IMG/VR virus record: IMGVR_UViG_2534681832_000045 | Length of the DNA: 19,835 nt | Source of the DNA: a virus | Lineage: Duplodnaviria > Heunggongvirae > Uroviricota > Caudoviricetes | Strand: one strand, 5' to 3' | Part shown: piece after piece, positions 9,001 through 12,000 of the stretch | How the letters are laid out: every line of letters starts with the position of its first letter | Position numbering within the stretch: the first letter of the stretch is position 1 | Made by a program: the position numbers

Positions 9001-12000
9001 TTAGTAACGGCCTGAGCGTTCCGCCAGTCCGGCGACAACTGGCGGCCCCCAAACGCCCGTCGGGGCCAACGCCAATTGAGTTGCTGAAACAGGAATATGA
9101 ACGCCGGAAAGCGGCTGGTTTTGTTTGAGTTGAGAAGTGATTTTTTACCGGGAGGAAATTTATGGAGACTGTTTTTGACGCACTGAAAGCGATGGGAAAA
9201 GCCACGTCGGTAGAGCTGGCTGCGCGACTTGATATCAGTCGTGAAGAAGTACTGAACGAGCTGTGGGAACTGAAAAAGGCTGGCTTCGTTGATAAAAGAG
9301 TATACACCTGGCGTGTGGCTGATAACAACGTTCAGCAGGAACAGCCAGCGCCAGAAGAAACCACCACGGCAACAGAAGCGAAAATCTCAGAGTGCGATTT
9401 AACCGCGACGATTGAACAACGCGGACCACAAACGGCGGATGAACTGGCTACGCTGTTCGGTACAACATCCCGCAAAGTTGCTTCAACGCTGGCAATGGCA
9501 ATCAGCAAAGGTCGTCTGATTCGCGTAAACCAGAACGGTAAAATTCGTTACTGCATACCAGGTGATAATTTACCAGCAGAGCCGAAAGTTGAATCGGTAG
9601 CGGAAACCGATGGTAAAGCCTTTCCTCAGCCAGCCGGTGTTGCGTTACCGGTACAGAAAGATGCAACACAGGAAGATATTAAAACAGAAACTGTGGCGGA
9701 CATTGTGCAGTCGCTGCCATCGTTTACTGCAACGCGAGAAGATGATTTGATTTTGCCATCGCTGCATATGGCAAATCGCGAACTGCGTAGGGCGAAGAAT
9801 CATGTCCAGAAGTGGGAGCGAGTCTGCGCCGCGCTGCGGGAGCTGAACAAGCACCGGGATATGGTTGCCGGGATTTGTCGGAAGTCCGGGCAATGAGCGG
9901 ATGGTGCAGGCCTGAAATCATGATACTAACAATGAAGGTAAAATGCATCGGCAGTCTGATTGGTCGTAGTGAGGCGGCGGTCAGGATGAAAGCCCAGGTT
10001 AAGGGAATAAGCCTGATTCTGCGGGGTGATTTTCACCAGTCAACAAAATATCCGTAGCGCGATAACGGTCAAAAATTATGGCGCTGACACTTTTGTGCCA
10101 CTGGAGATGACTGTACCTAAGTTCAGGGGAGAAGAACACGTCCGGTGGGATGGTCGGGCCAGATTTAAAGGGCAGGTCATGGCTCCAGCCTGTACGCTGG
10201 CAATGGAGGCTGCCTGGCGGGAAATTGATATGGGAACCACGCCACTCAGGGATTTACTGCCGGTCCAGAGAATAAATTCCTGTTACGGTTACACCACTGT
10301 GATCTTGCAAGTGCAGGAAAGTAGGTCTACACGGTAACGCGAGTGCGTGTAACTTTTGATGTCATTCCCGTAGAAACACCGGACAAATTTTCGCTGACAG
10401 GTCATGCAGAAGGTATAAATCTGCAGATTATGGACAATTACGGATATCCGGCAAGAGCCGGAAAAAGCATGCCGCCTCTAATTCTCAGTGGAAGATGGAC
10501 TTGATTATACTCATTGCATTGTCAGAAATAGTTATCCATTAAAGGCTGGCTATTCCAAACAGGATGTTGATTACAAAAATGTAATCAACATGTAAGGTTT
10601 ATACTCTTCAATATGCGTATAATTTTCCTTATTTTGTTGACTTTAAATAACAAGCTATGCACGAGGTAAAGTCGGATAAGTTTATCTGGATGTAATATAT
10701 ATTATTTGTAGTGTTTATAACTTTATTTCATGATAACCAATAAAAGGAGTTTTTTATGAGGAACATAATGGCAGGTTTTTTAATATTCCTGTCTTCTGCT
10801 GCTTATGCTGATATCAATCTGTATGGTCCTGGTGGCCCGCATACAGCCTTGCTTGATGCAGCCAAACTTTATGCCGAAAAAACAGGTATTATAGTGAACG
10901 TTCATTACGGCCCACAGAACAAATGGAATGAAGATGCCAAAAAAAATGCAGATATCTTGTTTGGCGCATCAGAACAATCTGCTCTGGCTATCATTCGGGA
11001 CCATAAAGACAGCTTCAGTGAAAAAGATATTCAGCCTCTTTATCTGCGAAAAAGTATTTTACTGGTAAAGAAAGGTAATCCTAAAAATATCCGGAGTATT
11101 GACGACCTGACCAGACCTGGGATTGGCGTAATTGTTAATGATGGTGGTGGTACCAGTAATACATCAGGCACTGGCGTCTGGGAAGATATTGCCGGACGTA
11201 AAGGGAATATAGAAACTGTCGCCGCAATCCGAAAAAATATTATTTTATATGCGCCCAATAGCGGAACTGCACGTAAGGCTCTTGAGAATCAGCCTGGAGC
11301 AGATGTCTGGATAACCTGGGCTGACTGGGCAGCCAGTAATCCAGAAATTGGTGATGTCGTGGAAATAGCGCCAGACTACGTGATATGGCGTGATATGAAC
11401 ATTACAGTACGTCAGGATGCAAATGATGAAACCCGTCGATTTGCAGAATGGCTACAAACCGATGAAGCGGCGCCTGCATTCAAAAAATATGGCTGGACCA
11501 GGAAAGGCACTTGACATCCTCGTCCTTCAGGACGTGGATTCTTTTTCCGGATGCCGCGCCAGCGGCATGTAGGGGCAGCTCACAAAACGGAAAAAATTGT
11601 ACGCTAAGCCTCGCCAGGTGAACTGAATTCATTCCGATATGGGAATTCCCATATCGGGCGAAAACGGTTTGCTGTAACGGCAGAGTTAAGTAGGATTGCT
11701 GCGGGTGCTTGAGGCTATCTGCCTCGGGCATGAACACCAACGGCAGATAGATAAAAGCCCCACCCGACTATAAATCGAAGTGAGGCCCCTATATGCTCGT
11801 CACATATAGATTGCCTCTTACGGACCGAAAGGTCAAGGAGAAGCAGGCTATGAAGCAGCAAAAGGCGATGTTAATCGCCCTGATCGTCATCTGTTTAACC
11901 GTCATAGTGACGGCACTGGTAACGAGGAAAGACCTCTGCGAGGTACGAATCCGAACCGGCCAGACGGAGGTCGCTGTCTTCACAGCTTACGAACCTGAGG

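Follow-up and report, generated by a model that had tools for sequence, protein, structure and literature searches.

The viral DNA (Caudoviricetes) of 19,835 nucleotides deposited as IMG/VR record IMGVR_UViG_2534681832_000045, which was analysed as a whole and is called here the window, carries an island of 1.76 kb (9866-11623) containing the gene paa, or adfO, between the replication genes and the hok gene of a lambdoid prophage. Our interpretation, of which we are confident, is that paa/adfO constitutes a moron encoding an exported binding protein of the AcfC/PEB3 family, which would act on colonisation via the machinery of the host, and that the island bearing it is of plasmid or transposon origin. 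By its sequence the locus is paa/adfO (Z2053) of O-island 57 (OI-57) itself, an already known gene, and not merely a relative of it. The encoded protein is 100% identical to RefSeq WP_001449026.1, 'AcfC family adhesin Paa' (cluster P0001), and the chromosomes of Escherichia coli O157:H7, O26, O111, O103 and O145 show 100% nucleotide identity to the window over 1.8 kb. When region 9900-11700 was searched by megablast against complete E. coli genomes, 573 out of 5,426 had it with at least 80% coverage, while 543 records, irrespective of coverage, reached at least 99% identity. Matching E. coli genomes annotate the gene as 'paa: AcfC family adhesin Paa', between a pseudogene labelled 'fimbrial protein' and hokD; phage records give its product as 'porcine attaching-effacing associated protein Paa/adherence factor AdfO' and call the element PPompW. 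The surroundings agree as well, since hokD/ckf downstream and the DUF1627 gene upstream are also identical in the known Paa/AdfO locus, and in OI-57 adfO (z2053) adjoins ckf (z2054), a hok-like gene (PMC8565820). Judged from these sequence comparisons, paa is a colonisation-associated moron of the lambdoid prophage near ompW (OI-57, CP-933O or 'PPompW') in enterohaemorrhagic E. coli and related attaching-effacing (A/E) strains.

The Paa protein matches the Pfam family SBP_bac_11, of class II binding proteins, along residues 20-247 (E 5.5e-34; 118.3 bits against a cut-off of 25). In a search of PDB sequences it retrieves, over residues 11-248, two relatives of solved structure: PEB3 of Campylobacter jejuni (E 1.2e-81; 2hxw, 3fir, 3fj7 and 3fjg, with 3fjm as a further PEB3 entry) and AcfC of Vibrio cholerae (E 3.5e-81; 4jb7). 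The mature protein is 53.7% identical to PEB3 and 51.7% identical to AcfC; with two crystal structures lying at 52-54% identity, the two-lobed class II binding-protein fold of Paa is therefore not in doubt, and a preliminary description of this DNA was right to propose a periplasmic-binding-protein fold. We have aligned 20 sequences of the family, the first being the window protein, down to 52% identity and from the genera Escherichia, Salmonella, Yersinia, Raoultella, Citrobacter, Edwardsiella, Enterobacter, Aeromonas, Vibrio, Francisella, Helicobacter and Campylobacter. Across these homologues 57 columns are invariant, all of which the window protein retains by construction, being itself part of the alignment. 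The loops that are invariant or nearly invariant comprise LYGPGGPH, GPQ, ADILFGASEQS, GNP, SNTSGTGVWED, PNSG and WITWxDW.

The coding sequence of paa (10756-11514, plus strand) specifies a precursor of 252 aa, with a signal peptide at residues 1-18 (10756-10809) and a mature chain of 234 aa. Its start is placed at 10756, and not at the internal ATG 10768, because homologues begin at the same position (M-[RK]-x-x), and a Shine-Dalgarno sequence, AAGGAG (10744-10749), lies 6 nt 5' of the ATG. The N-terminus, MRNIMAGFLIFLSSAAYA followed by DINLYGPGGPH, presents a charged n-region, a hydrophobic core (Kyte-Doolittle values up to 2.8) and a cleavage motif, A-Y-A, and PEB3 and AcfC, as crystallised in mature form, begin at the aligned D[IV]NLYGPGGPH; moreover, the precursor has no Cys and therefore no lipobox. 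Such features point to a Sec-exported, non-lipidated protein with a cleavable signal peptide. At the other end of the gene there is an intrinsic terminator (11513-11546, plus strand), formed by an imperfect 11-pair hairpin (11513-11541) and the run UUUUU (11542-11546); the segment 11508-11575 folds with -29.5 kcal/mol (z = -3.6 versus shuffles), and the terminator is conserved in the plasmid-borne form of the cassette. Hence, a secreted protein of 252 aa with its own strong ribosome-binding site and its own terminator, as the preliminary description had it, is what the locus encodes. Pairwise dN/dS values of paa against four homologues are 0.126, 0.032, 0.049 and 0.087; this range of 0.03-0.13 indicates, therefore, that the gene is functional and under strong purifying selection.

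The 201 bp upstream of the gene (10555-10755, plus strand) have 27% GC and are conserved with plasmid-borne copies, showing 89% column identity to the pig E. coli plasmid pSTEC388_3. Within this leader a TATAAT at 10618-10623 is conserved and represents a candidate -10 element. The coding sequence has 44% GC and the fimbrial remnant that precedes the leader has 48%, like the phage backbone; the AT-rich block of the preliminary description consequently holds for the leader and coding sequence of paa, not for the remnant. At the left edge of the paa cassette we have also observed a perfect 12+12 palindrome (10564-10591), ATGTTGATTACA and TGTAATCAACAT separated by aaaa, the core of which is conserved in the plasmid copy; it could be either a regulator-binding site or the stem of an upstream terminator. 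A separate observation concerns the pentapeptide DMNIT (residues 213-217, window 11392-11406), where the family-invariant Asn215 lies at the centre of an N-glycosylation sequon of Campylobacter type (D/E-X-N-X-S/T): without consequence in E. coli, since this species has no PglB, the sequon would matter were the protein produced in a glyco-engineering strain.

The gene has no permease or ATPase partner, just as had been noted beforehand, and no ABC transporter component is present anywhere in the 19.8 kb of the window; equally, no modBC or cysUWA-like genes lie near paa or its homologues in the nine contexts examined. On IncF plasmids a paa-like gene is solitary both in porcine E. coli and in Salmonella, in the latter abutting the truncated N-terminal domain of a Tn3-type transposase and a resolvase, and homologues are solitary on the chromosomes of Edwardsiella, Enterobacter, Francisella, Campylobacter and Raoultella. 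In Enterobacter there is an ABC operon near the homologue, but this operon has its own binding protein. The V. cholerae homologue, AcfC, is likewise solitary within the TCP/ToxT island, while the homologue of Aeromonas (54% identical; locus L015, 5001-5774, on a contig of Logan SRR25820356) forms a moron between the gpA replication gene and the ogr/portal/terminase genes of a P2-like prophage. The latter is a second, unrelated type of phage endowed with the same solitary binding protein. Solitary status is thus a trait of the AcfC/PEB3/Paa family, seen across seven taxa; its members are often located on mobile elements and experience strong purifying selection.

In functional terms, these observations lead to the real question of the locus, which is not newly testable from the window: How does a periplasmic binding protein without a transporter promote adherence? 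By the mechanism that we favour, exported Paa would close over a small anionic ligand in the cleft between its lobes, which is expected to be lined by the family-invariant GPGGPH, ADILFGASEQS, SNTSGTG and PNSG loops. Work by Min in 2009 on PEB3 T138A/S139A reportedly showed that the SNTSGTG loop touches the ligand through T138 and S139. The equivalent residues of Paa, T136 and S137, we take to be ligand-site residues too. PEB3 and AcfC suggest, by analogy, a ligand bearing phosphate or sulfate, for PEB3 has been reported to bind 3-phosphoglycerate and other phosphate-bearing metabolites (PMC12469816; PMC3417527), and AcfC sulfated glycans and mucin (PMC5976639). Ligand-loaded Paa might then act through a transporter, chemoreceptor or sensor encoded by the host, or else after partial release to the cell surface, and the outcome would be the better adherence and colonisation that the reports on paa/adfO mutants imply. 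Indeed, O157:H7 mutated in adfO has a reduced adherence to HeLa cells, together with lower production and secretion of several proteins (PMC8565820), and paa contributes to A/E lesions in porcine enteropathogenic E. coli (PMC2749873; PMC10562709). AcfC provides a parallel, as a periplasmic protein that chemotaxis to mucin requires and that in ELISA binds mucin as well as sulfated glycans, with no role in adhesion (PMC5976639). We infer from these analogies that Paa may affect colonisation by binding phospho- or sulfo-anions and engaging host machinery, rather than by functioning as a classical surface adhesin.

Several considerations weigh against this mechanism. The ligand class assigned to Paa derives from the analogy with PEB3 and AcfC, and the steps that would connect ligand binding with adherence are our own reconstruction. 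The mature chain of Paa has a mildly acidic pI (~6.0) and PEB3 a basic one (9.4), and Lys135 of PEB3 is replaced by Thr133 in Paa; because of these two differences, the ligand preference of Paa may diverge from that of PEB3. Furthermore, no confident promoter emerged for paa: a scan for consensus sigma-70 promoters returned 5 matches versus 4.1 in shuffled sequence, and none of them falls in the conserved leader. Finally, both NCBI and the original papers name Paa an adhesin, which implies a different mechanism.

Before dealing with that name, it is worth considering a broader idea, which we put forward tentatively: proteins of the Paa family could be partner-independent, mobile 'plug-in' sensors of the periplasm, and not adhesins. 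A solitary gene of this family is cargo of four unrelated kinds of mobile elements, namely prophages of lambdoid type in E. coli and of P2-like type in Aeromonas, IncF plasmids and the TCP island of V. cholerae, in every instance unaccompanied by a transporter and under strong purifying selection. Were the idea correct, these proteins would bind a phospho- or sulfo-metabolite of the host gut and dock onto a conserved chemoreceptor, sensor kinase or transporter in the core genome of any bacterium that acquires them, and the adherence phenotypes would be indirect.

The view that Paa is a true surface adhesin, directly binding a receptor on the host cell and possessing a binding-protein fold only incidentally, we consider unlikely. 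It is embodied in the NCBI name 'AcfC family adhesin Paa' and in reviews that regard Paa and PEB3 as adhesins, and the effects on A/E lesions and HeLa adherence are in line with it (PMC8565820; PMC2749873; PMC5976639). Yet the sequence has no outer-membrane anchor, lipobox or Cys, autotransporter domain or fimbrial assembly signal, and for periplasmic AcfC deletion of the gene left adhesion to Caco-2 and HT-29MTX cells unchanged (PMC5976639). One review raises a possible transport role for PEB3 and doubts the mechanism by which the Peb 'adhesins' were proposed to work (PMC3417527), and the loss of production and secretion of other proteins in the adfO mutant suggests that its phenotype is indirect (PMC8565820).

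Far less probable is the proposal, in keeping with the 'ModA-like' label of the preliminary description, that Paa is an orphan scavenger of molybdate or tungstate (or of sulfate, as Sbp) feeding the ModBC or CysUWA transporters of the host. The Pfam family SBP_bac_11 is common to all these proteins; models of sulfate binders and ModA give weak local matches to Paa (E 6e-5 to 0.09), as do PDB structures of sulfate binders (E ~1e-4), and AcfC has been proposed to bind sulfated molecules (PMC5976639). However, the NCBIfam matches extend over only 30-80 residues each and, at 12-23 bits, lie far below their curated cut-offs of 62-470. Thus, membership of ModA was rejected by TIGR01256 (18.3 bits versus 62.5), NF002920 (17.7 versus 470), NF002918 (14.4 versus 288) and NF007958 (11.7 versus 253), and that of the Sbp/CysP sulfate binders by TIGR00971 (21.5 versus 155.5), NF008022 (22.6 versus 288) and NF008106 (19 versus 308). 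The closest characterised relative, PEB3, reportedly binds phosphate-containing metabolites instead (PMC12469816), neither molybdate nor tungstate figures among the ligands reported for PEB3 or AcfC (PMC12469816; PMC3417527; PMC5976639), and the nine genomic contexts mentioned above offer no transporter of either kind as a neighbour. By all these comparisons Paa is 'ModA-like' only at the level of the superfamily, its real relatives being PEB3 and AcfC; the preliminary description did not identify it with paa/adfO, a gene already named and investigated experimentally. The additional suggestion that it could serve as a receptor or decoy has found nothing in its support, and a role in defence was likewise rejected, PADLOC giving no match. 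Least credible of all is an inert island with paa as a hitch-hiking remnant devoid of function in the lysogen, for although the gene sits between a pseudogene and the relic of a transposon end in a prophage often degraded by IS elements, its frame is intact with a consensus Shine-Dalgarno and terminator, its dN/dS is low, its family-invariant residues are all retained, its near-identical copies span several serotypes in those 543 records, and mutant phenotypes have been published (PMC8565820; PMC2749873).

Returning to the favoured interpretation of paa as a moron acquired from other mobile elements, we have mapped the island in detail and found it to be a mosaic of four pieces; as the preliminary description proposed, it is an insertion of moron type located between hok and the replication genes. 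Homology of the phage backbone to other lambdoid phages stops at 9865. The left end of the island (9866-10089, plus strand) holds an ORF of 54 aa (9893-10057), the ATG of which overlaps the stop of the DUF1627 gene (ATGA). This segment is present in exactly the same 573 genomes as paa; its ORF matches phrog_30109 at 6e-17, and a partial match of 84% falls elsewhere in a gene for a 'DNA-binding protein', so that the ORF is probably a fragment of such a phage gene. The pilin remnant described below (10083-10554) comes next, followed by the paa cassette (10562-11574), which has 88.7% nucleotide identity to IncF plasmids and includes the upstream palindrome, the leader, the Shine-Dalgarno sequence and the terminator. 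A second, GC-rich hairpin, ATGCCGC-gcca-GCGGCAT (11551-11568, plus strand), marks the right end of the cassette. In pSTEC388_3 (L004), the IncF plasmid already mentioned, we noted an imperfect inverted repeat of ~60 bp (3780-3841 and 5964-6025) that flanks a segment of 2.2 kb with the yacA/yacB toxin-antitoxin genes and the paa-like gene; its right arm includes the hairpin found at 11551-11568.

The last piece of the mosaic (11572-11618, plus strand) is a relic of one terminal inverted repeat of the Tn3 family, consisting of GGGGCAGCTCACAAAACGGAAAAAATTGTACGCTAAG (11572-11608) plus ~10 nt. The repeat has the form GGGG...ACGCTAAG, with the outer GGGG end facing paa, and a query of 54 nt matches 1,904 plasmids from many genera. 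In one intact element (L008) the repeat overlaps the 3' end, with the stop, of a gene for a Tn3 family transposase and is oriented as a terminal repeat should be. The homology between plasmids and the paa region ends at 11574, about where the repeat starts (11572), and the repeat may be a trace of the movement of the cassette. That paa lies within a complete transposon was also considered and rejected, since a search for a second Tn3-type repeat on both strands of the window and of the compared loci, allowing up to 11-12 mismatches, left a single copy. With one repeat only, and no transposase or resolvase gene in the window, the structure is consequently a relic and not an element. The phage backbone resumes at 11624-11664, which matches phage vB_EcoS-666R9 (L006, 6204-6244). 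This stretch contains a perfect palindrome of 24 bp (11634-11657), CCGATATGGGAA joined to TTCCCATATCGG, with a central EcoRI site, which lies 5' of hok/sok and is also present in vB_EcoS-666R9. Other prophages accommodate different cargo, for example DUF551, DUF977 or QueH, in the slot that lies between the DUF1627 gene and hokD. We conclude from this variability and from the mosaic pieces that plasmid and transposon material was put together to form the island, which entered a variable moron slot by recombination; assembly would have taken place on plasmids or transposons, and recombination between the phage replication genes and hok would have followed.

The preliminary description had also recognised, just upstream of paa, a decayed fimbrial gene in two frames, which it took for a major subunit. 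The decay in two frames is real: tblastn of an intact fimbrial protein of 195 aa, from plasmid pGE3, against the window gives E = 2e-63, with three pieces at 10083-10256, 10247-10492 and 10491-10550 in frames +2/+1/+2 that cover residues 22-182 of 195. The identity of the subunit is different, the sequence at 10083-10554 (plus strand) being a pseudogene for a minor pilin of PapH/SfpH type, that is a terminator/anchor pilin, with two frameshifts and one in-frame TAG. Its stitched translation matches PapH (PDB 2j2z_B) with E 1.1e-53 over residues 3-160 of 173, and the intact plasmid homologue does so with E 1.4e-81. The intact gene on pGE3 (WP_001297837.1), with 85.8% nucleotide identity to the remnant over 10090-10554, is second in a pap-like operon ordered as major subunit, papH-like gene, usher, chaperone and fibrillin, and other plasmids annotate the intact homologue as papH or sfpH. 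The remnant has lost the signal peptide (approximately the first 21 codons) and the last ~13 codons, corresponding to the C-terminal strand, and PGAP annotates it as 'fimbrial protein, frameshifted; internal stop'. Pfam and NCBIfam scans of the raw fimbrial ORFs (10026-10334 and 10343-10501) gave no match, and the stitched remnant also misses the Pfam Fimbrial model; neither usher nor chaperone genes are present in the window. This papH-type sequence is dead, non-functional debris. A perfect inverted repeat of 13 nt, AGTCAACAAAATA and TATTTTGTTGACT, flanks it at 10038-10050 and 10630-10642, with a chance expectation of ~0.04 pairs in 2.4 kb. An invertible element delimited by this repeat was discarded: the right arm of the repeat has no conserved counterpart in the plasmid cassette, and the repeat is probably a coincidence.

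Outside the island, the window corresponds to a lambdoid early region, with an integrase and an exonuclease, cI/cro-like genes and YdaT, DnaT-like and P replication genes, then the DUF1627 gene, the island and hok/sok in this order, and finally DUF968, Q and a SASA esterase. The DnaT-like gene is an uninterrupted ORF of 371 aa in the window (~7559-8674), whereas in strain PV15-279 it is interrupted by IS1203 (L001, 7225-8437); the paa island of this strain is 99.96% identical to that of the window. The hok/sok-type toxin-antitoxin locus, known as 'ckf' in publications on OI-57, occupies 11703-11852 and 11793-12005, the Rfam sok match extending over 11703-11852 with 103.9 bits, and a mok-like ORF of 70 aa in it matches phrog_251 (MokW-like host killing). 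Farther along there is an isrK-like match at 12014-12095, weak and below the cut-off (24.9 bits), followed by a strong terminator at 12074-12091. Rfam detects no structured RNA within the island, its only matches being sok and the isrK-like one, both outside it. The esterase region is split into overlapping ORFs, 16462-17319 (DUF1737 plus SASA, 285 aa) and 17234-18232 (DUF6645, 332 aa); a related O157 prophage has here an annotated SASA family esterase of 645 aa, the start of which corresponds to position 17234 of the window.

With the gene, its homologues and the crystal structures of two relatives already published, the locus adds little scientifically. The small additions that our comparisons suggest are the assignment of the remnant to PapH, the plasmid-type boundaries of the cassette, the lone Tn3-family repeat and the solitary, repeatedly mobile nature of the family across genera. 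In evolutionary terms, the fine map of the island outlines a plausible route by which a prophage captured a colonisation gene borne on plasmids.

Compared with known systems, the locus does not differ from Paa/AdfO of strain EDL933 (O157:H7; Z2053, in PPompW), the protein and the DNA of 9900-11700, fimbrial pseudogene included, being the same. The remnant resembles PapH, the minor pilin that terminates and anchors P pili, but is dead and has no usher or chaperone beside it. The paa-like genes that IncF plasmids carry in porcine and other E. coli, Shigella, Salmonella and Citrobacter share the cassette and encode proteins with 92% identity to Paa; they differ in their flanks, formed by yacAB/repA and partition genes without the papH remnant, and RefSeq labels them only as 'substrate-binding domain-containing protein'. 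AcfC resembles Paa in being a colonisation factor encoded on a horizontally acquired island, in having no transporter of its own and in its periplasmic nature (PMC5976639). It is reportedly co-transcribed, within the TCP/ToxT island, with the chemoreceptor-like acfB (PMC5976639), whereas Paa has no chemoreceptor neighbour, and AcfC does not mediate adhesion, in contrast with the adherence defects of Paa/AdfO mutants (PMC5976639; PMC8565820). PEB3, lastly, has in common with Paa the mature N-terminus D[IV]NLYGPGGPH, the invariant loops including SNTSGTGVWED and the solitary condition of the gene; it differs in being an N-glycoprotein in Campylobacter, with a DFNVS sequon that is absent from Paa, and in having its gene on the chromosome, whereas that of Paa is carried by a prophage.

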